The translations under genes and the position numbers were made by a program. This document shows, one piece after another, positions 1,244-20,151 of a stretch of 20,610 nucleotides of DNA. This stretch comes from an uncultured virus (IMG/VR IMGVR_UViG_3300031998_000047). Its lineage: Duplodnaviria > Heunggongvirae > Uroviricota > Caudoviricetes. The DNA lies in IMG/VR virus record IMGVR_UViG_3300031998_000047. One strand, written 5' to 3'. The first letter of the stretch is position 1, and each line of letters begins with the position of its first letter. The notes below the pieces were generated by a model. That model did no database searches. It saw only the letters and a list, made by a program, of their open reading frames with translations, and was not told the origin of the DNA.

Positions 1244-1813
1244 ATGATTTCAAAAGAGAAAGTACAAGAATTGATTAAGCGTGCCTACAGCATTGCGGCC
1301 ACACACGGCTTTCATGAGGTAGACCGCAGTAATGCGCATTTTATGATGCTCGTCGTTTCGGAAATCGGCGAGATGGTCGAGGCCGACAGAAAGAATATGC
1401 GTGCCAATCCCAAAGGTTTTGAAAAGTGTGTTGGTCTTACGTATAACGACCGTTTCAAGAACTACGTCAAGGACACGCTGGAGGATGAATTGGCCGACGT
1501 CGTTATCCGTATATGTGATTTCTTGGGAACACGGCATATAGAGCCGCTTATCCTCGAGGAAACATCTACAAGCGATGATTGGGCTAACCTTTGGGGTAAG
1601 GCCTCTATCAACGAGCAATGCTACGGATTGACGAAGATTATAACCCGTATTGACGAAGAGACGTCGGCAGACGATATTTCCCGTCTTCTTGGTGCTTCTC
1701 TTGCATGGTGCTTTGATTTCGCCGATTTCCACAAATTCGACCTGCTTTGGCATGTGGAGCAGAAGATGCTATACAACGAGACCCGTTCAATTCGTCACGG
1801 CAAGAACTATTAA
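1244..1813 (+). CDS. MazG-like / all-alpha NTP pyrophosphohydrolase
   Basis: Motifs HGFH, LVVSEIGEMVEADRK, EDELADVVIRICD and C-terminal KMLYNETR..HGKNY match the ExxE...ExxD metal-binding pattern of phage MazG-like proteins. Confidence 0.8.
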   Translation: MISKEKVQELIKRAYSIAATHGFHEVDRSNAHFMMLVVSEIGEMVEADRKNMRANPKGFEKCVGLTYNDRFKNYVKDTLEDELADVVIRICDFLGTRHIEPLILEETSTSDDWANLWGKASINEQCYGLTKIITRIDEETSADDISRLLGASLAWCFDFADFHKFDLLWHVEQKMLYNETRSIRHGKNY

Positions 1814-1825
1814 ACGTTGTTTATC

Positions 1826-2014
1826 ATGGCAAAGTTCGTAAGAATCAAGGTCGGCGAGGAGAATCTGCCGTGTCTTTTCGATTTGGAGGCGATAGAATGC
1901 ATCGACCTGCGAAACAAGAGCGTTTATACCGTAGGTACAAACCAACCATATCATATTTGCGACCAATCATCATGGGATAAAATAATACTATATGCGAACG
2001 AAAATGCGAAATAG
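1826..2014 (+). CDS. small hypothetical protein
   Basis: ATG at 1826 (MAKFVRIKV) preferred over TTG 1817; fills the gap in the operon. Confidence 0.65.
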   Translation: MAKFVRIKVGEENLPCLFDLEAIECIDLRNKSVYTVGTNQPYHICDQSSWDKIILYANENAK

Positions 2015-2017
2015 CGG

Positions 2018-2101
2018 TTTTAAGCCGTTTTAAGGCGTTATTTTTCTTTCGGTGGGTAGTTATCCCACAAATGGTATAGAAACGCGCCTACGGGCTTAAA
2101 A
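2018..2101. repeat. intergenic imperfect palindrome, copy 1
   Basis: Outer arms ttttaagccgt / acgggcttaaaa, inner gtggg-tagttat-cccac (2052-2068); reverse complement aligns with 11863-11940. Confidence 0.8.
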
Positions 2102-2133
2102 ATGGGCAAAAACGATAATAAACGGAAATAGTT

Positions 2134-2316
2134 ATGAAATGTTCGGAATGTAAATTTTGGCAACGTTCAAAGATGTACGGCAATCATTGTAAGTTTAGGG
2201 ACGGTGTAAAGCCTTGCGAATTTGATAGAATGAACAAGGAAACGAAAGCGCGACGTAAACGAGCAAAACGTAAAATGGAGAAGTATGATAAAAGTATGCG
2301 AAAGATTAGGTTTTAG
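2134..2316 (+). CDS. small Cys-rich basic protein (possible Zn-binding)
   Basis: CSEC...HC...PC pattern, K/R-rich C-terminus, AT-rich leader gaaatagtt-ATG. Confidence 0.7.
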   Translation: MKCSECKFWQRSKMYGNHCKFRDGVKPCEFDRMNKETKARRKRAKRKMEKYDKSMRKIRF

Positions 2317-3419: not shown

Positions 3420-3836
3420 ATGGAAAATTGGATTTTAGTAAAGAATCTTGACGGCGAGAAAATAAAAGTTCGTCAACACGTCAAATATGGTGACATCTTT
3501 GTTGATGAAAACGGAAAAGAGTACAAGGCATCACATTTGGATTTTACCGAGGCAATATTCGCTTTCCCAAAGATAAAAGATAGCCATTTTGACGAACTAA
3601 AGGAAATAATGAAGTCTTGGGACGTAAAAGAGCAAGACAACAATCGTGCCTTGATAGCCGAGCGTGAGTATTGGCGCAAGCTACGTGGTGACATTTTCTT
3701 TGCCGTATTTAAGGAAAACGATAATGCCACGTTCCAACAAGTCGTTGATTACACGAAAGATTATTTCGATGCTCTCTACGAACAAGACAGAAAATTCTTT
3801 GCCGACAAGATGGCGTTTAACGTTCCAGTATTATGA
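3420..3836 (+). CDS. hypothetical phage protein
   Basis: ATGA overlap with the next gene. Confidence 0.75.
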   Translation: MENWILVKNLDGEKIKVRQHVKYGDIFVDENGKEYKASHLDFTEAIFAFPKIKDSHFDELKEIMKSWDVKEQDNNRALIAEREYWRKLRGDIFFAVFKENDNATFQQVVDYTKDYFDALYEQDRKFFADKMAFNVPVL

Positions 3837-4183
3837 AGCGCAACGAAACATTGCAAGCCTTGTGCCGTAACTATCTTAATCGGTTGCGGTACATGGCTTC
3901 AAAGCACGGTCTTTTGCCTTGGGTTGACGAGACGATACGCGCAAACCGTAGGCGTGAATGTGAGGCCACGAAAAAGGAGGTTGAAATGTTGTCAAGGCTA
4001 TGCAATGACGAGCGTATTGAAAGAAACGACGTACCAAAGGTGTTAGGCAAGTCTTATAGGCAAAGCGTAGAGGATGATGACTTCTCGCATATCCGTAAAC
4101 TTCCCCGCCTTGGAACTTATCTTAAACTCGATGCGCTTCTGTTGAAAGAACGAAGAAAAACGAAAAAGAAGAGTAATTTATGA
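3833..4183 (+). CDS. hypothetical phage protein
   Basis: ATGA overlaps at both ends (translational coupling). Confidence 0.8.
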   Translation: MKRNETLQALCRNYLNRLRYMASKHGLLPWVDETIRANRRRECEATKKEVEMLSRLCNDERIERNDVPKVLGKSYRQSVEDDDFSHIRKLPRLGTYLKLDALLLKERRKTKKKSNL

Positions 4184-5052
4184 ACGAACTTACGCAAATA
4201 ATCGGAAATGACGGAAAATCGGGATATATAAAGAAAGATTCCGATTTCCAAAAAGACGGCCTTTGTGGTATGGAACAGCAGATATTAACGCCAGTAGAAT
4301 ACAAAGACGGTTTTTTCCTTAAAAGGGATGATTATTTCACCGTCTATAACGTTTGCGGTGGCAAGGCGCGTGCGGCATACCAAATCATAACCGACGCTAT
4401 GAAAGACGGCCAAAGGGTTTTCGTGACCGCAGGAAGCCGCATGTCGCCACAATGCGAGATTGTGAGTTGCATTTGCCAAAACTTGAACGTGGACTGCCAT
4501 TTGTTCATGCCTAACGGCAAATCTACAAGCGTGCTTGAAAGCATACAAGCGAATACGACATCACACCTTCATCTTCAAAAGGTCGGATATAACTCCGTCA
4601 TCATCCATCATGCTATGGAATATGCCAAAGAAAACGGGTATTTCTATATTCCGTTTGGAATGGAATGTGAGGACAATATCGAAATTACGAAGCATCAAGT
4701 CAGGAACATTCCAAAGGAGGTTAAGAGAATCGTCATTCCTTGCGGAAGCGGCATGTCTATGATTAGCGTCATAAAAGGCCTCGAATACTACAAGATGTAT
4801 GACAAAGAGGTTTTGGGCGTTGTCGTAGGTAAAAAGCCGAATGGCACGTTTGGCAAGTTCTTGCCTAATGACATGTTTAACGGCACGCACATCAAGTATT
4901 CTTTTGTCGATGCTGGTATAGACTATCACAAGTCGCCGAAAACGACGCAAGTAAACGGCGTGGAGCTTGACCCTATCTATGAATCGAAGTGTATTCCGTT
5001 CTTGAAGGAGATGGATTTATTGTGGATTGTAGGACACCGTATCTTAAAATAA
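4180..5052 (+). CDS. fold-type II PLP-dependent enzyme (ACC deaminase / D-cysteine desulfhydrase / PALP-like)
   Basis: LTPVE..FLKRDD...GGKAR (Schiff-base Lys motif), YIPFG, phosphate-binding loop VIPCGSGMS, LDPIYESK; alternative start ATG 4270. Confidence 0.85.
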   Translation: MNELTQIIGNDGKSGYIKKDSDFQKDGLCGMEQQILTPVEYKDGFFLKRDDYFTVYNVCGGKARAAYQIITDAMKDGQRVFVTAGSRMSPQCEIVSCICQNLNVDCHLFMPNGKSTSVLESIQANTTSHLHLQKVGYNSVIIHHAMEYAKENGYFYIPFGMECEDNIEITKHQVRNIPKEVKRIVIPCGSGMSMISVIKGLEYYKMYDKEVLGVVVGKKPNGTFGKFLPNDMFNGTHIKYSFVDAGIDYHKSPKTTQVNGVELDPIYESKCIPFLKEMDLLWIVGHRILK

Positions 5053-5058
5053 TTATTT

Positions 5059-5952
5059 ATGGCACAACAAAGTTTTGATTTATTTGGAAACCCTATTGAA
5101 ACGAAGGGTGATTTGAAGAAAGAATTTGGCGCAAACCCGTTTTCTATTCTTGACACAAAGGATGGTCTTTGGCAAGCGCGTAAAAAGAAGTGGATTAACA
5201 TGGGTATAAAATCAGAGGTCGGTCGTGACGCTGTGACGTACCACATGAAAGACTGGGCTGACAAGAAAGGCGCGGAGGGTACGTTGAAAGGCAATAACCT
5301 TCCGTCCGACACATCAATCTTTGACCCCGTTCTTTGTGAATTGATGTACCGTTGGTTTTGCCCAGATGGTGGCTCTATCCTCGACCCCTTTGCAGGCGGT
5401 TCGGTGCGCGGTATCGTTGCTAATTATCTTGGCTACCATTATTCGGGTATCGACATACGGCAAGAGCAAGTAGATTCTAACCGCGAGCAAGCATTGGATA
5501 TATTGGGCGTGGAAAACCTACCCCAATGGTATGTTGGTGATTCCAATATCGTACTCGAACAAAACTGGCAAAAGCAATTCGACCTTGTTTTCACCTGTCC
5601 ACCGTATGCCGACTTAGAGGTGTATTCGGATATGCAAGGCGATATATCGAATATGGAATATGACGATTTCATCTTTACCTTTGAAAGCATCATGCGTAAG
5701 GCATGTAAGTTGCTTAAAAAGGGTGGCATGGCCATTGTCGTTGTTGGCGAGGTGCGCAATAAGCAAGGCAACTACTATGGCTTTGTAGCCGACACAATAA
5801 AGTTGATGCAACGGTGCGCGGGTATGGGCTACTACAACGAGGCAATATTGGCCACAAGCCTTGCAAGCGCGGCCTTACGTGCTGGTGGCAACATGAAATC
5901 GGGAAAGTTGGTAAAGGTGCATCAAAACGTCTTAATGTTTAAAAAATCGTAA
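5059..5952 (+). CDS. SAM-dependent DNA amino-methyltransferase-fold protein (motif I before motif IV)
   Basis: SIFDPVLCE, ILDPFAGGSVRG (motif I variant), GIDIR (motif II), VGDS, FTCPPY (motif IV), LKKGG. Confidence 0.85.
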   Translation: MAQQSFDLFGNPIETKGDLKKEFGANPFSILDTKDGLWQARKKKWINMGIKSEVGRDAVTYHMKDWADKKGAEGTLKGNNLPSDTSIFDPVLCELMYRWFCPDGGSILDPFAGGSVRGIVANYLGYHYSGIDIRQEQVDSNREQALDILGVENLPQWYVGDSNIVLEQNWQKQFDLVFTCPPYADLEVYSDMQGDISNMEYDDFIFTFESIMRKACKLLKKGGMAIVVVGEVRNKQGNYYGFVADTIKLMQRCAGMGYYNEAILATSLASAALRAGGNMKSGKLVKVHQNVLMFKKS

Positions 5953-5956
5953 ATAG

Positions 5957-5988
5957 TTTGCATATTACAATTATTATGATTACCTTTG
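5957..5988 (+). promoter_or_regulatory. Bacteroidota sigma-A type promoter (-33 TTTG / -7 TAnnTTTG)
   Basis: TTTG 5957-5960, 20-nt spacer, TACCTTTG 5981-5988, intergenic. Confidence 0.8.
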
Positions 5989-5994
5989 CATCGT

Positions 5995-6167
5995 TCTATC
6001 AACCAAGTGTTGAAAAGATTACGAAATCGTAGAAATGCGATTTTTGCCCAAAGGTATGAGGGCGTGAGTGGACTTGCAACCCACAACATACCAAATGAAA
6101 GTTTTGTGTACGTCTTTCATTCGCCATTTTCTACAAAACGACACGTCACATTTAGTACACGTTTATT
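5995..6167 (+). ncRNA. putative structured 5' leader / small RNA
   Basis: Stems tcaac/gttga (5999-6013), aaatcgta-GAAA-tgcgattt (6024-6043), ggtatg/catacc (6053-6092), gtgg/ccac (6068-6084), aatgaaag/ctttcatt (6094-6121). Confidence 0.4.
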
Positions 6168-6806
6168 ATGAAATTAGGTTATAAGACAGACGAGCAAAAG
6201 GCTCACATAGAGGAACTATTTGGCCACACGTCAATATGGTTTAATGACGAAGGCGATTGTATCAATATTGACGATTGGGTATCGTTTGACACGTTGGCAG
6301 CTGTTGTTGATTATCTACGCCAGCCGTCAGACGCAAAAAAGGAACTTTTCGAGGAGTGTTGGATAGCATATCGGCGTAAGGGGTCAAAGAAGAAGGCTTT
6401 GGAATATTGGAAGAAACTTACCGACACGGAAAAGGAAAACGTGTTGGTGCATATCAAGGCTTACACGTCAACACGCGAACTACAATATCAAAAGGACTTT
6501 GAACGCTATTTGCGCGACAAGGTGTTTATGACCATTGTGTTTAATGGCAATAAAGTTGTCTATGACCCGACAAAGATAGGGAAAGGCGAAACCGTCAACG
6601 AGGTGTATATGCCTACATGTGATGGTGCGTTGTCGTGGAATGAATACTACAAGTGTTTCATGTATGTTGGCTTTTGGGATGGAAGGCACATTGCCGATGG
6701 CTACAATGACGATAACCGTCCTCACGGTGCAACAATTACTCTTAACAACGGACGCGGTACTATCACTTGGAATAGTGAAACAAAAACTTGGGATAAGATA
6801 TGTTAG
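6168..6806 (+). CDS. phage replication-associated protein (replisome organiser/initiator-like helical motif)
   Basis: LFEECWIAYRRKGSKKKALEYWKKL...YQKDFERYL resembles the FEEFWxxYPRKxxKxxAxKxW motif of phage initiators; lies upstream of the primase-helicase. Confidence 0.6.
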   Translation: MKLGYKTDEQKAHIEELFGHTSIWFNDEGDCINIDDWVSFDTLAAVVDYLRQPSDAKKELFEECWIAYRRKGSKKKALEYWKKLTDTEKENVLVHIKAYTSTRELQYQKDFERYLRDKVFMTIVFNGNKVVYDPTKIGKGETVNEVYMPTCDGALSWNEYYKCFMYVGFWDGRHIADGYNDDNRPHGATITLNNGRGTITWNSETKTWDKIC

Positions 6807-7589
6807 AATTAGACAAAATTTATTGCATGGATAACGTGCAAGGTATGAGACAGTGCGACGCAGAAAGCATAGACTTGGTAGTTACAAGCCCACCGTATGA
6901 CAATTTGCGTAATTACAACGGTTTTTCTTTTGACCTTGATGGTATGATAGCAGAACTGTTAAGGATAGTTAAAACGGGGGGGGGTAATTGTATGGATTGT
7001 AAGCGACGCAACTCAAAACTATAGCGAAAGCGGTACTTCATTTAGACAGGCATTAAAGTTTATGGACGCAGGATTTTGTTTATTCGATACAATGGTCTGG
7101 ATAAAAGACGGCGGAGGTGCTATTGGAAGTAATATCCAATACGTACAGAATTTCGAGTACATGTTTGTGTTTAGCAAAGGCAAGCCAAAGGCTATCAATC
7201 TCATATACGACAAGCCTAATATGTCATTTGACCCAAGCAAGAAGACTTACACAAGAACTTGCAACAGGACTGGTGACAGCAGGGAGGGTTATGAGTGTAC
7301 GATGCACATGCTGGAGTTCTCTCGTCGCAACAACTGGTGGTACTTATGCCCTCAGAAGCAGGACGGTAGTAAATGGCATCCTGCCGTGTTCCCAGAGGTG
7401 CTTGTGCGTGACCACATCATTTCTTGGTCTAACGAGGGCGATGTGGTGTTAGACCCATTCATGGGAAGTGGCACTACCGCAAAGGTTGCAAGGGCATTGG
7501 GTCGCAAATATATCGGCTTTGAAATAAGTCAAGAATACGTTGATTTAGCCAACAAAAGATTACAAGATACAAAAACATTATTTGATTAG
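6800..7589 (+). CDS. beta-class N4-C/N6-A DNA methyltransferase, split by a frameshift at a G9 tract (~262 aa if G8)
   Basis: First part has IDLVVTSPPY; after the G run the +1 frame reads VIVWIVSDATQNYSESGTSFRQAL, continuing into HPAVFPE and VLDPFMGSGTT. Confidence 0.85.
6976..6984 (+). repeat. G9 homopolymer at the methyltransferase frameshift
   Basis: aaaac-ggggggggg-taattg; 8 G restores the frame. Confidence 0.9.
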
Positions 7590-7858: not shown

Positions 7859-10000
7859 ATGTACGAAATAGACGAAAGCCAAATACGGCAATGGTGGTCG
7901 TTGTTTAAAGGTGGTGAAAGATTGGTCGAGGTACGCCTATTGGGTAAGAATACTTATAGCGGGTACTTTACCAACGTGGAAACGCTTATAGCGCAATTAA
8001 AGCCGCTTTTAGACCCCAACAATGCGCAATACTACGGTGCGATGCAAGCATACTTTACGCTTAACGACATCAACCCAGCATTGTATAGCCGCGAGCAACG
8101 TGACGTGTTTGTTAAGAAGCCGAAGTCAACGACAACTGACGGTGACATTGTGCATCGTGGAATGGTGTTGATTGACCTTGACCCGAGCCGTGCCGCAGGG
8201 ATTAGCGCGAGTGATACAGAATTTGAAAAGGCACACTTGAAAGCTGTTGCAGTATATCGCTATCTTATCAACGAGGGGTTTAAAGACCCTATCATAACGA
8301 AAAGTGGAAACGGCTATCACGTGTACGTTACTTGTGATATGCCGAATGATGACGAGCACAACGAACTCATAAAGCGTTTCTTGCAGTCATTGTCAAAGAT
8401 GTTTAGTGACGGTGACGTTGAAATAGACGAAAAGGTGTTCAATCCTGCTCGTATTGACAAACTTATTGGTACGTGGGCTAAGAAGGGAGCAGATAGCCAA
8501 GAAAGACCTTGGCGTTTGGCTACCATTGTCAAAGTACCGCAAGACCTTTCTCCTAACGAAGATTCGCTTTTTCAAAAGATAGCAGACTTGCTACCAAAAG
8601 AAGAACCAAAGCAAGCACCCAATAGACCAAACAGGCAATTTAGCAATGCACCTTTTGACCTAAGAACGTGGCTAAATCAGCACGGCATAGTTTATAAAGA
8701 GGAAAAGCAGGGAAGTAGCATAAGGTTTACTTTGGAAAAGTGCCCTTGGATAGACCAACACAGCGACCACAAAAACTGGGACAGTGCGCTTTTCCAAGAT
8801 ACAGAGGGGAAAATTACATTTAATTGCCAGCACAGTCACTGCAAGGGGAAAACTTGGATGGACTTTCGATTATTCTACGAGCCTAATGCTTATGACAGGC
8901 CTGCGTATCAACCGCAATTTGCACCGCGTCAATATGCACCACCAAAGCCAAAGTACGAAATAAAGGACGTGTTGCCTGAATTGGGAGAAAAATGGCTTTC
9001 CCTTTCGTCTATACAAAAGATAGACCTAACGCAAATTGGCGGTGTCAAAACAGGCTTTACCGAACTTGACCGTAACATTGTGCAATTGAACTATTCCGAG
9101 GTTACGTTATTGTCTGGTAGCAATTCAAGTGGTAAATCGTCTTGGTTGAACACGTTGATATTGAATATTATTCAACAAGGCGTACCGTGTGCGTTATGGT
9201 CAGGCGAGTTACGTGCCGACATCTTGAAAACGTGGGTGCAAATGGTTGCCGCAGGAAAGTCAAATCTAAAGCAATCCAACTATGGTGACGGCAAATATTA
9301 CGTGCCTAATGGTATTGCGGAAAGAATAGACCAGTGGCTCGATGGAAAGTTCTTCTTGTATAACAACGAATACGGTTGTCAATGGGAGCAAATATTCCAC
9401 GACATGAACGAATTGCTAAAGGCTGGCGTGAAAGTCTTTGTGCTTGACAATCTTTTCTCGTTGAACATTGACCTTTTGGAGGGTGACAAGAACAATAAGC
9501 AAAAGGAACTTATCTTGCAAATCAAGGAATTTGCGAAAAAGAATCAAGTACATATTATCCTCGTAGCACACCCGCGTAAGGTGATGACATTCTTACGCAA
9601 GAACGATATTAGCGGTACGTCAGACTTGACCAATGCAGTTGATAACGTGCTTATCATACACCGTGTAAACAACGACTTCTTTAGGGCGGGTGCGGAGTTC
9701 TTTGGTCAAGGCGAAATACAACGTTTCCAAGGTTTCGGCAATGTCATCGAGGTGGCAAAGAATCGTATGTATGGTATCGTCGATTTGATGGTAGGTATGC
9801 AATATGAAATCGAAAGCCGCCGTTTCAAGAATACGCCCGATGAGAATATACACTACGGATGGGAGGCTGAGCCCGTTCAAGGCACGATGTCCTTTAATGA
9901 AAAGGAACGTGCGGAGGTACATACAGAGCAAAGTGATGCGCCCTATGCAGTAGGCGATATGCCGTTTGCACCCCCTATTGATAGTGATGCACCATTCTAA
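7859..10000 (+). CDS. primase-helicase: AEP/Prim-Pol domain + Zn-binding module + SF4 (DnaB/T7 gp4-like) helicase
   Basis: VLIDLD and SGNGYHVY (AEP motifs I/II); CPW..H...CQHSHC; TGFTELD, Walker A SGSNSSGKS, Walker B FVLDNL, LVAHPRK, DISGTSD, KNR. Confidence 0.9.
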   Translation: MYEIDESQIRQWWSLFKGGERLVEVRLLGKNTYSGYFTNVETLIAQLKPLLDPNNAQYYGAMQAYFTLNDINPALYSREQRDVFVKKPKSTTTDGDIVHRGMVLIDLDPSRAAGISASDTEFEKAHLKAVAVYRYLINEGFKDPIITKSGNGYHVYVTCDMPNDDEHNELIKRFLQSLSKMFSDGDVEIDEKVFNPARIDKLIGTWAKKGADSQERPWRLATIVKVPQDLSPNEDSLFQKIADLLPKEEPKQAPNRPNRQFSNAPFDLRTWLNQHGIVYKEEKQGSSIRFTLEKCPWIDQHSDHKNWDSALFQDTEGKITFNCQHSHCKGKTWMDFRLFYEPNAYDRPAYQPQFAPRQYAPPKPKYEIKDVLPELGEKWLSLSSIQKIDLTQIGGVKTGFTELDRNIVQLNYSEVTLLSGSNSSGKSSWLNTLILNIIQQGVPCALWSGELRADILKTWVQMVAAGKSNLKQSNYGDGKYYVPNGIAERIDQWLDGKFFLYNNEYGCQWEQIFHDMNELLKAGVKVFVLDNLFSLNIDLLEGDKNNKQKELILQIKEFAKKNQVHIILVAHPRKVMTFLRKNDISGTSDLTNAVDNVLIIHRVNNDFFRAGAEFFGQGEIQRFQGFGNVIEVAKNRMYGIVDLMVGMQYEIESRRFKNTPDENIHYGWEAEPVQGTMSFNEKERAEVHTEQSDAPYAVGDMPFAPPIDSDAPF

Positions 10001-14091: not shown

Positions 14092-17000
14092 TTAAACCAT
14101 TTCAACACGAACGGCCATACCAGAAGGATTAGACCATCCGTTAAGAATATTCTGTATAGCCAATTGCACTTGATAGCTTTGCTGCAACTGCAAGAGCATT
14201 TGCGACATCGTTGCAACCTGAACATCAATGTCAATGCCAACGACGGCATCACGAATTTGGGCAAGCAAATCGCTTTGATAATACACTTGCTGACTGACGC
14301 CGTTCATATACGCTTCCAACGCTCCAGCTGTATCTTCGTTTATGCCCTGTATGCCTTGCTGTAGAGCTGAGAGTTTTTGTTCGCTGACCTTATCGCCAAA
14401 CAGTCCAAGCTCACGAAGCAGGTCTTCGATAGACTTCATTTGCTCTTCCAATATTGGCTGTCCAGACCTTAAAAGCTCTGCGTAGTATTTGATGTCATCG
14501 ACGGTTGGTGTGTATGCCTCATCGAGCTGTTTCTGTGCATCGGCAATTATCTGTTCAGTCTGCTTTATCCAGTTTTCCCTTGTCGTTACAACCCATTCGT
14601 TGTTAAGAGCCTTGTACCTGTCATAGAATCCATAGTATTCTTCGTTCTTGGCTTTTTCAAGAGCGTTTTGCTGTTTTGCGACAAATTCTTGCAAAGACAT
14701 AGACAAATTTTTTCCTTCAAAACCAGTATAATCCCATGTCAATTCGTTAGCTCTCGCGCTAATACTTTCTTGTATCTTATTCCATTGCTCGTCAAACCAA
14801 GGCTGTAGAATCTTTGTTGTAAACATCTTCTTAACCATGTTGGCTATCATTTCATCAACGGATTCGTCAAACTTTGCCATAGCATCTTCTCCGCTACGCA
14901 AAGCTTCTACGAAAGCATCCATCATACTTTCCATTGCGTCGCCAACACTTGATATGCCAAGCAGGTCATTAACGATGCTGTCAACCGTGTCTGCTATGTC
15001 GTATTCAAGTTCCTTGATTTGCTTTTGCAAGTCAATAATCTTATCCTCATCACGGTTCTTTGAGTCACGAGAACGTTCAAGTGCAAGTTGACGCTTGAGT
15101 TCTACAAGTTGCAATTCCTTGTTAGCCTTTGCAGCCATGTTAGCACCAATGGTAGCCATGCCATACGCTTGTTGTACTGCATGTTCAAGGTTAATGTATG
15201 CAAGTTCAAGACGCTTTACTTCACGCTCGGATTCCTCTATTTGTGCTGTAATATTTCTATTGCTTTGGCCTGCAAGGAAAGATACAAGGCTTATAACAAC
15301 GGTAAGTGCAGCGGCAGCAGCAGCGACCCATCCAAGCGACATTTCGGCTATTGCTGCTACGGTAGCTACCAATGTTAAAGCGGTAGCCATCATGGTAAAC
15401 CCTTGTGCAAGTGATTTTACCATTTGGCCAGCCTCGCTATCCTCGGTGACTCCAAGCAGCTCTGCAAATTGCGTCAGCAAATTACCAACGTTTTGAAGTG
15501 CTGTTGCCGAACCGTTCAAGGCGTTTTGGAACTTTGTTTGAGCGTTCATCTGCTTTATTTCGGCCTGCGCGACATTTTGCTCCGCTTGGTTTTTGTTTTT
15601 GACAGCCTTTGTGTAACGCTCTTGTGCTTTTGCAAGGCGTTCTGCTTTTTCAGCCTCGTTACCGAATCTTGCGTTTGGATTATTGGCTGCGCTTTGAGCA
15701 TTATTCAATTCGGCTTGTGCGCTTTCGAGTTCTCTGTTAGCGTTAGCAAGTTCTCTGTTAGCACCAGCTGCCTCAACGGATGCGTTGCGCCACTCTTTTA
15801 TGCTTTCTATAATATTCTCAAAAGGAGCACGGCTTTCCAACTCGTCGCGGCCTTTTTTGTACGCATCCATAAGAGCCTTCATGCTTGCAGGGTCGTCTTT
15901 GACTTTTTCCTTGAGTATATCAAGCCACGCAAGAATAGAGCGAATTGCACGGGTAGAAACCCTATCCATGTCTTCAAACATCATGGCATAGTAGTCGCTA
16001 TCCTTAAAGTTGTCCCATTCGATTTTTGCTTTGGTTTTAATATCGCCCTGCTCTACACTTGCCGCCAACTTAATCCCGACATCTTTACCTTTAACGACCT
16101 TGTTTACAAGTTCGTAAAGCTGCTTTTGAATACGTGCGACTTCGTCTTGGTCTGTAGTAAGAGTTATCTTTTTAGACAAATCCAAAGCCTCGGCCTGCTC
16201 GGAATCGTTACCAAACTTTCGCACAATATTAAGCTGCTCTTGTGCAGTATCTTGTGCGGCCTTTATAAGTTTTGTTTGATAATCGCCGTACTTTTCGAGT
16301 AGGGAGTTCCAGTCTTTAATGGTATCTTCTGCGTTCTTTTTCCAAATACCACGAATATAATTTTGCGCTTTCTCCAACTCTTTTATGGCATCACCATCTA
16401 TCGACTGTTTTACCGACTTCGCAAAGGCGTTTATATCCCCTTTCAGAATGTCAAACGAACGCTCAATGCCAAGCTTGTTTAACGCCTTATCGACAGAAGA
16501 TTGAACCATTGCAAGAGCCTGCTCAAAAGTGTGTGGAAGGGATGATGTGTCGATATTGAACATATCCGCAAATAAATTGCCAAGCTCTGTATTTGCGTCA
16601 AGCTCAACGGCCAGCTCGTAATCGTCTTTTATTTTCCCAAGTTCACTATTAAGCCCATCTGTGATTTTCTTGTAGTCAACCTTGGTTATTTCGACGTTAA
16701 GGTTGCTAATGGCTTTCTCCAACGCCTCAATGCCTTTAGTGTTGCCTTTAATCGAAGCAATCTCGCGAAGATTCTTATAGTAGTCGCGAAGTTGGCGTGC
16801 ATCCATCTTTACAAGCTCGGAACTATCAAGCCCATTTATACCAAAGCTCTTTAGCACATTGTTTTGTGCAATAAGAGATTTCTTATATTCATTAGATGAT
16901 GCAATACGAGCCTTGTCTGCGTCAACGCCAGCTTTCTGATAATCCTTATACAATTTCTGCATTTCGGTTATCAGCTGTATTTCTTTCGTTAAAGCGTCTC

Positions 17001-20000
17001 CAAGTGGGTCTTTCTTTGAACCTTTATTATTTTTCCCCTCTTTTGCCTTTTTAAGTTCTTCAAGGCTTACGCCAGCTTTTAATGCTTTGTTGTATTTGGC
17101 TTGGGCTTCTGTTTCCTTTTCGGTAACAAGGCTGTTGTCGGCAGTTCCTTGCTTTACGCGATTTTTGGCGACAGCGACAGCGTCTAACGCAGACTTGTAT
17201 TCTTTCAATGCGTTAGAGGCCTCCTTTGTTATCGTTGCGCTTTTACGAGACTCAATATCTTTTGCCTTGTTTTGTGCGGCTTGTGAGTATTGTGCTGCAC
17301 GCAGGAAAAGTTGCTCGACGCTAAATTCTGTCCCATTAACATTCAAGGATTCTTTTCCCGCCTTTTTTGCTTGTGTAGCCAAAGCCGTGAAACGTGCTGA
17401 AAGTTGTGTAAGCTCGGTTAATCCCTTTTGACTCATCCACGCTGGAACCTCGGTCTTGACCTTTACCAAAAAGTCAATGATGTTAAGTCCGCTATAATCT
17501 TTGATTAACTTGTCAATTTTCTTATAGAAATTGTCAGTATCGTTAGCGGCTTTCATCAGTTGCGTTTGCGTCTGCTCTACGCGGTCATTGAAATCAGCAC
17601 CACCTTCGGTAGCCTTTTTCTCTGCCTCGTAAGCCTTGTCAATCGACTCTATATATTGGTCTTGGGCTTCTTTTGCGTCCTTAATCTTTCCAATGAAATC
17701 GCCTACTATATCGTTCTTGAGGAAAAGCGTGTCATCGAGCCATTGCTTAGAAATAGTGCTTTCGCTAATGCCGATGTCGCGCATACGTTGTTGGATGGTG
17801 TCATAGATTTTTTGAACACCTTTTTCGTATTCTTCACCCGTCTTACCAGCAATAAGCGTGATGTTTTGCTCTACAACGTCGCTAATGATATTTGCAATAG
17901 CCGATGCGTTTTGGCGTAATTCTTGGTTTTCGTAAACAAAGCCATACATACCAGTAACGGCTTCTTTTAATTGCGAACGCATCTTATTGCGTGCCTCTTC
18001 TACCGTAGACGTGTATTCGTCGCGTCCTTGTTGAACATCGTTTAAATGCTTTCTTTCAAGAGTTTCCTCTTTAATAAGGGCAATAGCAACGCGACGTTTT
18101 TCATTCAATACGTCCATGCCGTCGGTTTCCTTGACGGTTTCAATGCCGTATTCCTCGAGAATGCTATTAAGTTCGCCTAAAACCTTTTTGTAGTTCGATG
18201 TTTCGCCAGACATTCCCTTTAACGAATCAAAGAATGCCTCGGTTTCTTGTACGACCTTTGCACCTGCACGCCCAAATCTTTCTTGGTATTCGGTAGCCTG
18301 TTCTGTGTTGTCTTTAAGGAAACCGTAAGCCGCAGCCGCAGCGGTGATAACGGTGGCAATCGCACCTATCGGGTTTGATGCTACCGCTGCACTAAGGATT
18401 TTCCATGAACTGGCGACAAAACCGACAGCACGGCCAAGTTGGAACATTCCGCTTATAACTCCTTGCGTTATCAGAGTTCCGTTGACAGCGGCCACAAGAA
18501 TAGCCCGTGCGCGATAAATACCATACATGATAGCCACGTCGCGAACAATCTCATAAATCATTCGCCAATGCGCGAAAAGGAGTTTTAATCCGTTTACGGG
18601 CAAAGTAAGTGCGCTTTGGTTTTCTGCGCCTATTTCGTTTAGCATATTATTCCATGCCAACGTAAGATTAGCCATCTTTACGCGGAGTGTTTCAGCCTGC
18701 TTTGCTTGGAAATCAAAGAATTTACCACCCTCGTCGGTAACGCTATTGATAACCTTCATTACGTCGGCATAAGATACCATCTTGTTTGACATCATATCAA
18801 ACACTTGTGCGGTAGTAACAATCTCGTTGCCGAAACGCTTTTCTTCCGTGTACATTTGCGCAAGCATCGGAACGATAGCCAAGCCAGCATTTGCAAAGTC
18901 GCGGGCATCACGGGCTGTAAGTGCCGTTTGGGCGCGAATCTGACCTAAGTTGTAAACCAAACGCTCCATAGGCACGCCCAAGGCAGCGGAAATATCTGCA
19001 AGCCTGCGTGTAGTATCTACAACTTCCTCCTCTGCAAAGTTGTACGCCAACAACTGCTTTGCGCCCGTCGCAAGTTCAACGAGGGTAAATGGCGACTTGA
19101 TAGCCATTGTGTTTAATTCGTTGAACAATTCCGAACCACGACGCATATCATCAATCAAGATGCCGAGCGAACGTTCAAGCATTTCGTATTGACCGCGCAC
19201 TTCGTACATTTGTTTGACAAAGTTAGTAATAGCACCCAATGTCATTGCATAAACAACACGATTACGGATATAGCCGAACGATTGCGCTAAATAATTGTTG
19301 CTGTGCGTTAATTGTATGCCTTTTCCGAGCAATTCTGCTTGCAAACGCGAAAGACGTTGGTATTCGCTGCCAAGTTGATGAATCTCGCTTGCATTACCAA
19401 CTTTGATAGATTTCAGCGCACGCATTTTTCTTGCAACAGCATCAACGCTTGACTCGTCCATGCCAAGAACGTCTTTAAGCGTGTTGCCTCTTGCGTTTTG
19501 GCGCATATCACGGATTCTTCCTATAAGTACAAGGATTTTCTTGTCTAATGCAGCCATTGCATCAGCATCAAGGACTGGTGTAGCCCTTAATTCATTCTTA
19601 ATCCGCAACATTTCGCGCAATTTTCTCTCTGCGTCGGGCAGAGATTTATCCATCATGAGGTTTGCACGCTTAATTTCGCTTGAATATTGTTGCACAAGTT
19701 TCTTGGGGTCGCTGGTCGTTTCTGAGCGGAGTTTAGCACGTTGCTCGTCCAACAGCTCGTTTTGTTTACGCAATTCTTCTGTACCAAGATACATTTTATC
19801 GCGCCTTTGTTCCTCTAAATTGATAAGCTCTTTCAATTGACCTACCGTGCCATCGTCAAACGCGCCCTTTCCGCTACCTTTTCCACCGCCCGAAGCCTCG
19901 GATTGCGCCTTGAACATAGCATCAAACGACGCGGACATATCCTTCCAAGCCTCCTTCATCAAATCGACGGAAACTTTCTGCGTAATTGCGAAATCCTTCA

Positions 20001-20151
20001 TGGCCGATTTCATCTTATCCATTGCGGAATCAAACTTACCAGCCATTATAGTAGTCTTATCACCAACGAAATCTATCAAATCGTTAATCGACTTTTCTAA
20101 TTCCTTGGAATCAAGCTTACCAACAATCAGAACATCATCATTTGCTGCCAT
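14092..20151 (-). CDS. tail tape measure protein (2019 aa)
   Basis: Very long A/K/E-rich helical ORF; tape-measure domain SPFTLVELATGAKQLLAY...LGQIRAQ; hydrophobic NPIGAIATVITAAAAAY and a second TM-like segment; follows the chaperone genes. Confidence 0.93.
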   Translation of the reverse strand: MAANDDVLIVGKLDSKELEKSINDLIDFVGDKTTIMAGKFDSAMDKMKSAMKDFAITQKVSVDLMKEAWKDMSASFDAMFKAQSEASGGGKGSGKGAFDDGTVGQLKELINLEEQRRDKMYLGTEELRKQNELLDEQRAKLRSETTSDPKKLVQQYSSEIKRANLMMDKSLPDAERKLREMLRIKNELRATPVLDADAMAALDKKILVLIGRIRDMRQNARGNTLKDVLGMDESSVDAVARKMRALKSIKVGNASEIHQLGSEYQRLSRLQAELLGKGIQLTHSNNYLAQSFGYIRNRVVYAMTLGAITNFVKQMYEVRGQYEMLERSLGILIDDMRRGSELFNELNTMAIKSPFTLVELATGAKQLLAYNFAEEEVVDTTRRLADISAALGVPMERLVYNLGQIRAQTALTARDARDFANAGLAIVPMLAQMYTEEKRFGNEIVTTAQVFDMMSNKMVSYADVMKVINSVTDEGGKFFDFQAKQAETLRVKMANLTLAWNNMLNEIGAENQSALTLPVNGLKLLFAHWRMIYEIVRDVAIMYGIYRARAILVAAVNGTLITQGVISGMFQLGRAVGFVASSWKILSAAVASNPIGAIATVITAAAAAYGFLKDNTEQATEYQERFGRAGAKVVQETEAFFDSLKGMSGETSNYKKVLGELNSILEEYGIETVKETDGMDVLNEKRRVAIALIKEETLERKHLNDVQQGRDEYTSTVEEARNKMRSQLKEAVTGMYGFVYENQELRQNASAIANIISDVVEQNITLIAGKTGEEYEKGVQKIYDTIQQRMRDIGISESTISKQWLDDTLFLKNDIVGDFIGKIKDAKEAQDQYIESIDKAYEAEKKATEGGADFNDRVEQTQTQLMKAANDTDNFYKKIDKLIKDYSGLNIIDFLVKVKTEVPAWMSQKGLTELTQLSARFTALATQAKKAGKESLNVNGTEFSVEQLFLRAAQYSQAAQNKAKDIESRKSATITKEASNALKEYKSALDAVAVAKNRVKQGTADNSLVTEKETEAQAKYNKALKAGVSLEELKKAKEGKNNKGSKKDPLGDALTKEIQLITEMQKLYKDYQKAGVDADKARIASSNEYKKSLIAQNNVLKSFGINGLDSSELVKMDARQLRDYYKNLREIASIKGNTKGIEALEKAISNLNVEITKVDYKKITDGLNSELGKIKDDYELAVELDANTELGNLFADMFNIDTSSLPHTFEQALAMVQSSVDKALNKLGIERSFDILKGDINAFAKSVKQSIDGDAIKELEKAQNYIRGIWKKNAEDTIKDWNSLLEKYGDYQTKLIKAAQDTAQEQLNIVRKFGNDSEQAEALDLSKKITLTTDQDEVARIQKQLYELVNKVVKGKDVGIKLAASVEQGDIKTKAKIEWDNFKDSDYYAMMFEDMDRVSTRAIRSILAWLDILKEKVKDDPASMKALMDAYKKGRDELESRAPFENIIESIKEWRNASVEAAGANRELANANRELESAQAELNNAQSAANNPNARFGNEAEKAERLAKAQERYTKAVKNKNQAEQNVAQAEIKQMNAQTKFQNALNGSATALQNVGNLLTQFAELLGVTEDSEAGQMVKSLAQGFTMMATALTLVATVAAIAEMSLGWVAAAAAALTVVISLVSFLAGQSNRNITAQIEESEREVKRLELAYINLEHAVQQAYGMATIGANMAAKANKELQLVELKRQLALERSRDSKNRDEDKIIDLQKQIKELEYDIADTVDSIVNDLLGISSVGDAMESMMDAFVEALRSGEDAMAKFDESVDEMIANMVKKMFTTKILQPWFDEQWNKIQESISARANELTWDYTGFEGKNLSMSLQEFVAKQQNALEKAKNEEYYGFYDRYKALNNEWVVTTRENWIKQTEQIIADAQKQLDEAYTPTVDDIKYYAELLRSGQPILEEQMKSIEDLLRELGLFGDKVSEQKLSALQQGIQGINEDTAGALEAYMNGVSQQVYYQSDLLAQIRDAVVGIDIDVQVATMSQMLLQLQQSYQVQLAIQNILNGWSNPSGMAVRVEMV

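Follow-up and report, generated by a model that had tools for sequence, protein, structure and literature searches.

A linked pair of phage genes for a PLP enzyme and a methylase-fold protein suggests an unstudied DNA mark built from SAM

Introduction

Which reaction could employ a PLP-dependent enzyme right beside a methylase-fold protein in a phage? This question is raised by a phage sequence from the rumen with a length of 20,610 nucleotides (the whole 20.6-kb stretch of DNA analyzed here, termed the window), in which the ORF of a methylase-fold protein begins 6 nt past the stop codon of an ORF encoding a PLP enzyme. From the bare sequence, it had originally been predicted that the methylase-fold protein attaches an aminocarboxypropyl or other SAM-derived group to a DNA base, which is then decarboxylated or deaminated by the PLP enzyme. 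The present analysis bears out this idea in part, as the two genes form a functional pair, the PLP protein is homologous to gp226 of phage ViI and AdoMet decarboxylase accompanies a sister clade of the methylase, while the argument from unusual motifs did not hold and most of the close methylase relatives lack a neighboring PLP gene. The findings suggest that the pair is one DNA-modification module producing an unstudied, SAM-built DNA mark.

To our knowledge, all known phage DNA hypermodifications bearing amino acid side chains begin from 5-hydroxymethyl-pyrimidines made before replication. According to PMC8989533, gp226 decarboxylates O-seryl-thymidine in DNA, and both gp226 and gp52 of phage M6 are PLP-dependent enzymes that decarboxylate amino-acid:thymidine conjugates in phage DNA.

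Results

The PLP protein (290 aa) is recognized by the Pfam PALP profile PF00291 (47.7 bits at a cut-off of 35, E 1.7e-12) and by phrog_3650 (E 3.2e-32). Its Schiff-base lysine K62 is in register with K92 of ViI gp226 and, in D-cysteine desulfhydrase 4d8t, with the stretch containing the PLP lysine, the glycine-rich phosphate loop is in register as well, and K62 plus 51 further columns, among them G60, G61 and G189, are invariant in an alignment of 16 homologues. These matches confirm the originally assigned fold-type II PLP enzyme with intact lysine and phosphate loop (Table 1). A PDB profile search retrieved ACC deaminase 1f2d (7e-8) and DcyD 4d8t (7e-7). As the homologues comprise about 255 aa and start near M31, this methionine is likely to be the true start. 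In some records, homologues are labelled threonine dehydratase or carboxylate deaminase.

Table 1. Features of the gene pair and of neighboring ORFs in the window.
Feature	Position (nt)	Strand	Basis
ORF	3420..3836		no family match (Pfam, PHROGs)
ORF	3833..4183		no family match (Pfam, PHROGs)
PLP-dependent enzyme, fold type II, ACC-deaminase/D-cysteine-desulfhydrase-like, ViI gp226 homologue	4180..5052	+	Pfam, PHROGs, BLASTP, profiles
Likely start of the PLP gene (M31)	4270		length of homologues
Schiff-base K62 in GGKAR	4363..4365		alignment
Phosphate loop PCGSGMS	4738..4758		alignment
Amino-methyltransferase-fold protein, phage 'ParB-methylase' family, without ParB N-terminal domain	5059..5952	+	PF01555, phrog_12517, phrog_498
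Motif I DPFAGGSVRG (residues 109-118)	5383..5412		
Motif IV CPPY (residues 180-183)	5596..5607		
Conventional MTase, first part	6800..7024		
Conventional MTase, second part	7062..7589		

The downstream protein (297 aa), likewise found as predicted with both its motifs in place, matches PF01555 in two stretches (52.4 bits at a cut-off of 26.7, E 8.6e-14), phrog_12517 (E 1.9e-85, residues 14-296) and phrog_498 (E 7.7e-66). In PDB profile searches, both halves of the protein, though swapped, match the beta-class N4-cytosine/N6-adenine methylases 2zie, 8s9n (an N4-cytosine methylase), CcrM, M.PvuII and M.MboIIA (3e-18 to 9e-7), with which it shares an xPPY catalytic motif. However, the beta-class order of a (D/N/S)PP(Y/F) motif IV followed by an FxGSG motif I is not found. 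Instead, the motifs are circularly permuted, with motif IV lying C-terminal to motif I, and show Cys in place of Asp/Asn/Ser as first residue of motif IV and GGS in place of GSG in motif I. An AF2 model (pLDDT 77.8) has a predicted class I methyltransferase fold, with aTrm11, TrmN, Trm14, RlmL and PrmA as top Foldseek matches. Neither spermidine synthase nor TYW2 is among the Foldseek matches listed, and these as well as the 19 PDB sequence matches include no aminopropyl or aminocarboxypropyl transferase as closest relative.

Within phages, the closest described likeness is to ParB-methylases (phrog_498 and phrog_12517), such as gp77 of Listeria phage B054 and gp36 of Enterococcus phage phiFL3A, which carry the same DPFAGGSVRG and CPPY motifs, are 36-47% identical over the methylase part and possess the same conserved N-terminal linker. 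In contrast to these proteins with an N-terminal ParB domain (CTPase fold), the window protein lacks such a part: a Pfam scan of 25 window ORFs detected the ParB domain PF02195 neither in the methylase ORF nor in any of the others, and the upstream ORF ending at nt 4183 shows no similarity to B054 gp77. In a search of phage records, a PLP match was not obtained in B054, phiFL3A, Funu2, phiCTP1 or HCTV-2. In the accessible part of PMC12704722, ParB-methylase fusions are noted and nothing more, and a subfamily member with measured activity or product was not found there or elsewhere in the literature searched.

Comparison with gp226 revealed a clear relationship of the PLP protein to this DNA-modifying enzyme (BLASTP E 4e-10; hhalign probability 98.6%, E 1.3e-15). 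The Schiff-base lysines are aligned, the motifs GYNS, QVxNIP, YExK and WIVG are held in common, and both are phage-encoded proteins of the same fold and family, located in DNA-metabolism regions. By these sequence scores, the PLP protein is nearer to gp226 than to metabolic enzymes, whereas similarity to M6 gp52 is weak (probability 48%, E 2e-4). The two systems differ in protein length (424 aa for gp226 against about 260 aa) and in their partners, which are an amino-acid:DNA transferase and a 5-hmdU kinase in the case of gp226 but a SAM-dependent methylase-fold enzyme in the case of the PLP protein. In line with the original reading of the window, neither a 5hmU kinase nor an amino-acid:DNA transferase was found in it by Pfam, PHROGs or tblastn with M6 proteins. 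Moreover, tblastn with M6 gp51, gp53, gp54, gp55 and gp58 and with part of a ViI kinase gave no match in the window or in 31 PLP loci (±6 kb), so that no M6-type transferase, kinase, radical SAM enzyme or thymidylate synthase was found there. The co-occurrence with 5-hmdU DNA kinase and aGPT-Pplase that characterizes gp226-type enzymes is not seen within these 20.6 kb and ±6 kb, respectively.

For evaluating whether the two genes belong together, the neighborhoods of their homologues were surveyed from both sides. Among 31 viral contigs bearing a PLP homologue, 21 also hold a homologue of the methylase, which is adjacent in six cases, located at a distance of about 1-2 kb in three and fused in the remaining 12, where the PLP domain interrupts the methylase at residue ~145-155. 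Other methylase-type partners are found at three more loci, namely a PLP-ParB-methylase fusion (L019), a SET-PLP fusion (L020) and a PF01555 methylase located upstream at a distance of about 1 kb (L027). Besides, 68 longer proteins with a PLP domain were found, of which 51 are assigned to PF01555 in a precomputed Pfam list, 54 show CPPY and 50 GGSVRG. A different methylase with the motif (F/L)TSPPY is present in eight of these proteins, and SET domains occur in six, in addition to L020. Altogether, three fusion topologies and both gene orders are realized. The pair or a fusion is also encoded by isolated phages, i.e., Mycobacterium phages Vincenzo and AlanGrant, Pseudanabaena phage Pam4, Erythrobacter phages vB_EliS_R6L and ZS04, and Microcystis phage Mae-JY30. 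Since adjacency or fusion of the genes recurs across many lineages of phages, the objection that homologues would show no linkage clearly fails, and, judged by gene order and domain architecture, PLP and methylase-fold genes are functionally linked and constitute one real unit.

The genes between methylase and PLP gene in L006 and L009 are mutually unrelated and missing from the window. A PP-loop ATPase-like gene immediately precedes the PLP gene in L009 and in Staphylococcus phage Alsa_1, but not in the window. The second of the upstream ORFs in Table 1 recurs in L009 only, the first not at all. In the AF2 model of the methylase, the insertion site of the PLP domain corresponds to the loop before strand 3. 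In the usual topology of the methylase fold, this loop faces away from the SAM site, and such a predicted placement counts against the explanation favored below.

Seen from the methylase, the link to the PLP gene appears weak. In only seven of the 79 most similar viral methylase loci was a PLP-family gene detected within 4 kb (tblastn and family HMM), the other 72 having none nearby within the fetched DNA, and the methylase family is far larger, with at least 8000 clusters versus 395 + 68 for the PLP family. The neighbors of unlinked methylases are NinG, DnaB, terminase and other methylase genes, as is the case with ordinary orphan methylases. Moreover, DPFAGGSVRG and CPPY are invariant in all 65 relatives whose fetched DNA contains no PLP gene as well as in all 28 PLP-linked ones. 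Being family-wide, these motifs do not sustain the original argument that their oddity points to special chemistry. As no other cofactor or catalytic column differs between the 28 linked and 65 unlinked methylases either, the whole family would transfer aminocarboxypropyl or none of it does. In a quick tree, PLP-linked methylases had formed a clade (support 82) resembling a specialized subfamily. This notion was dropped because the methylase-anchored survey revealed many unlinked close relatives missing from that tree. All 28 PLP-linked methylases retain G114, R117 and Y128, and when S115 is included the residues are kept in 27-28 of 28. Hence, their cofactor probably keeps its carboxylate, and the PLP enzyme would act after, not before, the transfer.

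A sister clade of the methylase, forming a single tree branch (SH-aLRT 95), is accompanied by AdoMet decarboxylase. From 80 loci selected by the motif-I variant FDxFAGDTVFG, all hold the methylase and 76 an AdoMet_dc gene directly downstream, while two of the four exceptions are cut at a contig end. The type of decarboxylase is tied to the residues of the cofactor loop: a PLP gene is present in none of the 80 sister-clade loci and an AdoMet_dc gene in none of the 31 PLP loci, and compared to the SAM-type relatives the sister clade shows G114D, S115T, R117F, Y128F and F88L, where the search pattern itself prescribes residues 114, 115 and 117 for 80 of 82 rows, so that only the rows of P2559S and Pseudomonas phage ZRG1, together with columns 88 and 128, are independent data. 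With a cationic side chain and a hydroxyl removed and an anionic side chain introduced, the change is in the direction expected for a cofactor without carboxylate. The association of this clade with AdoMet decarboxylase fits a SAM-derived group of the aminopropyl type. Gene order and Pfam assignments demonstrate the same pairing in Croceibacter phage P2559S, whose AdoMet decarboxylase is an active enzyme according to PMC9992855, in which phage AdoMet decarboxylase is read as polyamine metabolism and methyltransferase and ParB are not mentioned. On the other hand, arginine or ornithine decarboxylases are found among phage SpeD homologues, as stated in PMC10407285, which counts against the favored explanation.

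Concerning the rest of the window, the conventional MTase that had been noted at nt 6800 is present, albeit not as one gene but split where nine consecutive G cause a frameshift. A new promoter proposed to follow the gene pair was not confirmed by a simple sigma-70 scan, which gave no promoter-like site on the + strand between 5953 and 6167; the host may use other promoter types. In a DNA-level search of phage records, only short methylase matches were obtained. Contigs from four ruminant-gut runs (at least 85% likeness) cover the methylase gene but not positions 4000-5055, being uninformative on presence of the PLP gene.

Discussion

The explanation that we tentatively prefer is that the methylase-fold enzyme transfers an aminocarboxypropyl group from SAM to DNA and that the PLP enzyme decarboxylates it to aminopropyl. 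A gp226-type enzyme needs a free alpha-amino acid, and the sole steady partner of the PLP protein in these loci is a SAM-binding enzyme, which we take as support for a SAM-derived arm. Transferred group, acceptor atom, order of steps and a role against restriction are what we infer from this combination. Specifically, the methylase-fold enzyme would bind SAM with intact carboxylate and flip a base, its CPPY site acting on the nitrogen of an exocyclic amino group (A, C or G). Instead of, or besides, the methyl group, the 3-amino-3-carboxypropyl arm would be transferred under release of methylthioadenosine. The gp226-like enzyme might then engage the arm's free alpha-amino group on DNA in a Schiff base and remove the carboxylate, resulting in a positively charged 3-aminopropyl base that would impede nucleases of the host. 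The order would be reversed in the sister clade: AdoMet decarboxylase may first produce decarboxylated SAM, from which a methylase-fold enzyme with re-tailored cofactor loop would transfer aminopropyl.

Both orders have precedents. Decarboxylated SAM is the aminopropyl donor for methylase-fold spermidine synthases, and in microcin C biosynthesis the methylase-fold MccD transfers aminocarboxypropyl from SAM before the PLP domain of MccE, having another PLP fold than the fold-type II enzyme found here, decarboxylates it. The logic of a methylase-fold enzyme plus a decarboxylase of the methionine-derived arm is the same, with decarboxylation preceding transfer in the sister clade and, as in MccD/MccE, following it in our proposal for the window pair. 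In contrast to the DNA proposed here, the acceptors in these systems are small molecules, and between spermidine synthase or TYW2 and the window methylase similarity is neither detectable in sequence nor, among the matches listed, in structure.

Rather unlikely, yet to be taken seriously, is an ordinary DNA N-methyltransferase (m4C/m6A) with the PLP enzyme as cofactor-side accessory acting on SAM or SAH, for example, by destroying or decarboxylating inhibitory S-adenosylhomocysteine or by breaking down SAM. Both compounds are amino acids tethered to a nucleoside and, hence, resemble the gp226 substrate. The identical motifs of linked and unlinked methylases, the many close relatives without PLP gene in the fetched DNA and the neighborhoods typical of orphan methylases would all be expected from such a role, and the closest solved relatives by sequence are real N4-cytosine/N6-adenine DNA methylases on the one side and the ACC-deaminase-like family on the other. 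Moreover, fusion partners of the PLP domain comprise at least three unrelated types of SAM enzymes (CPPY, SPPY and SET) with SAM as common element, which an enzyme working on SAM or SAH fits at least as well. However, we know of no fold-type II PLP enzyme acting on SAM or SAH, and the nearest characterized relative of the PLP protein acts on DNA. In addition, its partner is overwhelmingly one methylase family, with 54 of 68 fusions and 21 of 31 loci, and the sister clade with AdoMet decarboxylase and altered cofactor loop would be left unexplained.

The remaining alternatives appear less probable. The PLP enzyme could itself be a SAM decarboxylase replacing the pyruvoyl AdoMet decarboxylase, with the methylase-fold protein then aminopropylating DNA. 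The mutual exclusion of two unrelated decarboxylase types around one methylase family and the decarboxylase nature of gp226 relatives are in line with this scenario, which we nevertheless regard as improbable: PLP-linked methylases do not have the D/T/F/F set of the sister clade but retain the residues of the unlinked type at positions 114, 115, 117 and 128, and, hence, do not look adapted to a carboxylate-free cofactor. Of similarly low probability is trimming of an amino acid attached by another enzyme, where the methylase part would serve as scaffold for DNA binding and base flipping or as amine methylator. Besides homology to gp226, the PP-loop ATPase-like gene, which could activate base or carboxylate, would agree with such a function, as would the fused SET domains, since these methylate lysine-like amines. 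Nevertheless, a consistent transferase candidate is missing, the PP-loop gene being confined to two loci, M6-type hypermodification genes were not found by tblastn in the window and the 31 loci, and at least 50 of the 68 fusions have both motif I and motif IV intact. Finally, a purely metabolic enzyme for breakdown of ACC, D-cysteine or threonine, placed beside the methylase by chance, is disfavored and very improbable. ACC deaminases and D-cysteine desulfhydrase are the closest solved structures by sequence, and some annotations of homologues point in this direction, but fusions recur in three topologies, 12 of 31 loci having the methylase interrupted by the PLP domain, and the match to gp226 is stronger than those to metabolic enzymes.

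Beyond the window, and with still more reserve than the preferred explanation itself, the phage ParB-methylase family might include, or even consist of, DNA aminocarboxypropyl/aminopropyl transferases, with two convergent SAM routes leading to an amine-bearing base, either by transfer followed by gp226-like PLP decarboxylation or by AdoMet decarboxylase first and subsequent aminopropyl transfer. If true, this would add to DNA hypermodification a new class independent of any 5-hydroxymethylpyrimidine precursor, the side chain being taken straight from SAM onto finished DNA as a new way to non-canonical, positively charged bases. Part of a very large 'methylase' family with thousands of members would have to be re-labelled, and there would be consequences for the evasion of restriction, for artefacts in sequencing and for site-specific DNA amination tools. 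In addition, it would account for phage AdoMet decarboxylase genes beside a 'methylase', so far interpreted as polyamine metabolism (PMC9992855). If, instead, the PLP enzyme acts on SAM or SAH, its fusion into methylases would be an undescribed form of cofactor management. In the literature searched, nothing was found on the gene pair, on DNA with aminocarboxypropyl or aminopropyl groups or on AdoMet decarboxylase in connection with DNA methylases. An article by Iyer et al. from 2013 (NAR 41:7635) is said to have possibly predicted DNA bases made from modified SAM derivatives already. The sole literature match for the term 'aminocarboxypropyl' concerns MetY.

Gene Pair and Surroundings

The window appears to derive from a tailed phage, and DNA near-identical to it is present in bovine and goat gut metagenome runs. 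As originally predicted, a PLP enzyme (P0001) and a methylase-fold protein (P0002) are encoded side by side, with only 6 nt between the stop codon of the former and the start of the latter. The expected motifs were confirmed in both ORFs, GGKAR (K62) and PCGSGMS in P0001 as well as motif I (DPFAGGSVRG) followed by motif IV (CPPY) in P0002. The PLP gene start at 4180, however, needs correction, as homologues have about 255 aa and begin near M31. The P0002 family profile matches solved N4-cytosine/N6-adenine DNA methylases (2zie, 8s9n, CcrM, M.PvuII, M.MboIIA) with the halves in swapped order, and the AF2 model (pLDDT 77.8) is similar to amino-group methyltransferases, for example, aTrm11, TrmN, Trm14, RlmL, and PrmA.

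Features of the window and of compared viral loci
Feature	Source	Position	Strand	Size	Remarks
P0001	window	4180-5052	+	290 aa	PALP-family PLP enzyme, E 1.7e-12, above curated cut-off
P0002	window	5059-5952	+	297 aa	PF01555 8.6e-14; phrog_12517 1.9e-85; phrog_498 (ParB-methylase family) 7.7e-66
Intergenic stretch	window	5953-6167
Beta-class methylase (TSPPY)	window	6800-7024, 7062-7589			two ORFs
Primase-helicase	window	7859-10000
Tape-measure gene	window	14092-20151	minus
HNH endonuclease	window
DUF3127 SSB-like gene	window
Pyrophosphatase	window
PP-loop ATPase-like gene	L009	4051-5091			between methylase and PLP gene
PP-loop homologue	L003, Staphylococcus phage Alsa_1	4259-4867			directly before PLP gene
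Protein with uracil-DNA-glycosylase (UDG) domain	L029	3384-4664		426 aa
ORF in same place as L029 protein	L032	8155-9435		same as L029 protein
PLP enzyme	L039, Mae-JY30	3741-4451			PALP E 4.6e-12; annotated 'DNA modification methylase'
gp1	L001, Vincenzo	1406-2275			contains methylase part; annotated 'ParB-like partition protein'
SET-PLP fusion	L020	2128-3657

A new promoter proposed to follow the pair could not be verified, a simple scan of the + strand of the intergenic stretch revealing no sigma-70-like site, a type that may not be the host's. By eye, TTTG-containing stretches are seen there, of the kind found in Bacteroidota promoters. The nearby methylase regarded as conventional does belong to the beta class but is interrupted by a frameshift in a stretch of nine G (6974-6982), which could be due to phase variation, decay or homopolymer sequencing error. 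Since the whole gene is absent from contigs of three ruminant-gut runs (three studies), where 6775 is joined to 7591 with 23 other letters, it represents an accessory insertion.

Relatives of the PLP Enzyme

Compared with solved structures, P0001 shows distant likeness only, to ACC deaminase and D-cysteine desulfhydrase. Matches were obtained to the Ackermannviridae PLP enzyme, which is present in 348 phage records, and to ViI gp226 (BLASTP E 4e-10; profile probability 98.6%), with K62 aligned on K92 and GYNS, QVxNIP, YExK, and WIVG common to both. As pure enzymes, gp226 and M6 gp52 were shown to decarboxylate thymidine-linked amino acids in DNA (PMC8989533). M6 gp52 is weakly similar to P0001. 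M6 partner genes were detected neither in the window, where a 5hmU kinase or an amino-acid:DNA transferase had originally not been visible either, nor in 31 viral loci with PLP homologues collected by a pattern-plus-tblastn scan of viral contigs.

Linkage Seen From Both Sides

The neighborhood survey bears out the proposed pairing, the two genes being adjoining or fused across phages. By tblastn, 21 of the 31 PLP loci contain a P0002 homologue, either directly adjoining the PLP gene (n = 6; L005, L008, L010, L011, L017, L033), 1-2.2 kb away (n = 3; L006, L009, L014) or split around the PLP domain (n = 12; L012, L013, L015, L018, L021, L023, L024, L025, L026, L035 and, cut by the contig end, L028 and L034), with the break always near P0002 residue 145-155. 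Among loci lacking such a match, L019 encodes a PLP-ParB-methylase fusion, L020 a SET-PLP fusion and L027, roughly 1 kb upstream, a methylase of standard PF01555 type, while no methylase was seen in seven of the 31 (L007, L016, L022, L029-L032). Among longer proteins, 68 fused PLP forms were found, 51 with PF01555 and six with a SET domain, showing CPPY (54), (F/L)TSPPY (8) and GGSVRG (50) and arranged as insertion, methylase-then-PLP or PLP-then-methylase. The link is also seen in isolated phages. Pam4_70 and gp1 of Erythrobacter vB_EliS_R6L are insertion fusions, gp1 (methylase) and gp2 (PLP) of Mycobacterium phage Vincenzo overlap, and in Microcystis Mae-JY30 three separate genes for ParB, methylase and PLP lie next to one another. 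Public records mislabel both Vincenzo gp1 and the Mae-JY30 PLP gene. L009, which shares synteny with the window, has the cassette at the equivalent place, in different order and with an additional PP-loop-like gene.

From the methylase side, a PLP-family gene lies within 4 kb in 7 of 79 loci (tblastn plus family HMM; the best by similarity of at least 567 viral loci), a lower bound because some loci have little flank. The remaining methylases lie among genes for NinG, DnaB, recombinases, small terminase and additional methylases (scan of 95 ORFs). The methylase family comprises at least 8000 matches versus 395 + 68 for the PLP family. Linkage being common from the PLP side and rare from the methylase side, it is the PLP enzyme that relies on the methylase, rather than vice versa.

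The methylase motifs, originally considered unusual, are not peculiar to the pair. DPFAGGSVRG and CPPY also occur in Listeria B054 gp77, Enterococcus phiFL3A gp36, Funu2, and HCTV-2, and in variant form in phiCTP1, all without a PLP match in the phage-record search, as well as in unlinked methylases. Between 28 linked and 65 unlinked methylases (seven loci with the contig ending at the gene left out), no difference is seen at positions 109, 111, 113, 114, 117, 128, and 180-183, and none of the columns switches cleanly. Whichever group the methylase transfers, it probably does so whether or not a PLP gene is present.

AdoMet Decarboxylase Sister Clade

The P0002 homologues (36-40% identity) of Croceibacter phage P2559S (L045) and Pseudomonas phage ZRG1 (L046) contain motif I FD(C/T)FAGDTVFG, and each overlaps a small AdoMet decarboxylase (AdoMet_dc) gene. 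A DNA pattern for the FDxFAGDTVFG variant matched at least 113 viral stretches, 80 of which (L047-L126) were taken with flanks. The methylase is encoded in all 80, and in 76 an AdoMet_dc homologue follows immediately downstream. Of the other four, L064 and L084 are cut off by the contig edge, and L096 and L121 lack such a gene. PLP homologues are absent from these 80 loci, as are AdoMet_dc genes from the 31 PLP loci. The clade forms a single branch in a quick tree (39 rows, SH-aLRT 95) and differs from SAM-type relatives by F88L, G114D, S115T, R117F, and Y128F, where 114, 115, and 117 are imposed by the search pattern in 80 of 82 rows, leaving 88, 128 and the two phage records as independent. 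The P2559S enzyme is a true AdoMet decarboxylase, as it enabled an E. coli speD mutant to make spermidine again (PMC9992855, which makes no mention of the methylase). A caveat is that arginine or ornithine is the substrate of other phage SpeD homologues (PMC10407285). SpeD homologues occur in 147 phage records, mostly of cyanophages. Methylase-fold protein plus AdoMet decarboxylase forms a widespread module of two genes in its own right, which has until now been interpreted as polyamine metabolism.

Proposed Function

The one-sided dependence, the need of the PLP enzyme for a free alpha-amino acid and SAM as the sole amino-acid-bearing partner point to tailoring of a SAM-derived arm. Tentatively, we favor that the methylase-fold enzyme would transfer aminocarboxypropyl from SAM and the PLP enzyme would then decarboxylate this arm to aminopropyl. 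The AdoMet decarboxylase clade would arrive at the same aminopropyl product starting from decarboxylated SAM. Such a module would mirror MccD/MccE and spermidine synthesis, which are parallels to this logic. Our confidence is held down because an otherwise ordinary-looking methylase family would have to transfer a larger group, and because fusions of the PLP domain with SET and SPPY-type enzymes fit uneasily. The main rival, to which we assign a distinctly lower probability, pairs a plain methylase with a PLP enzyme acting on SAM or SAH. That the PLP enzyme is itself a PLP-type SAM decarboxylase is improbable given the unchanged cofactor loop, and a third-enzyme model, for which a steady candidate is lacking, appears just as doubtful. 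A purely metabolic role of the PLP enzyme is contradicted by the fusions and can practically be dismissed.

Our literature search found no description of the PLP and methylase-fold pair; reportedly, Iyer et al. in 2013 may have predicted related systems. A ParB-fold survey does no more than list ParB-methylase fusions (PMC12704722). The pair could be a new form of phage DNA hypermodification, a reading that is directly testable.

Further Observations

The PP-loop gene of L009, with weak QueC, PAPS-reductase and tRNA-methyltransferase HUP matches, has a homologue in Alsa_1 (28.6% identity, E 1e-23), is absent from the window and may be a third component in some module versions. PLP loci without methylase sit among replication genes, and the UDG-domain protein of L029 is reminiscent of polymerases with a fused UDG, which have been reported in phages whose genomes are T-modified (PMC13697223). 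SET-fused PLP proteins (P0147, P0152, P0155, P0162, P0163, P0173 and that of L020) include some with DUF5872, and the contig of one of these loci bears the label giant-virus MAG. The amino-methylase in the eight (F/L)TSPPY fusions differs from the CPPY type. P0184 and P0185 bear an extra Asp/Arg-hydroxylase-like domain and P0183 a LAGLIDADG homing-endonuclease insert.
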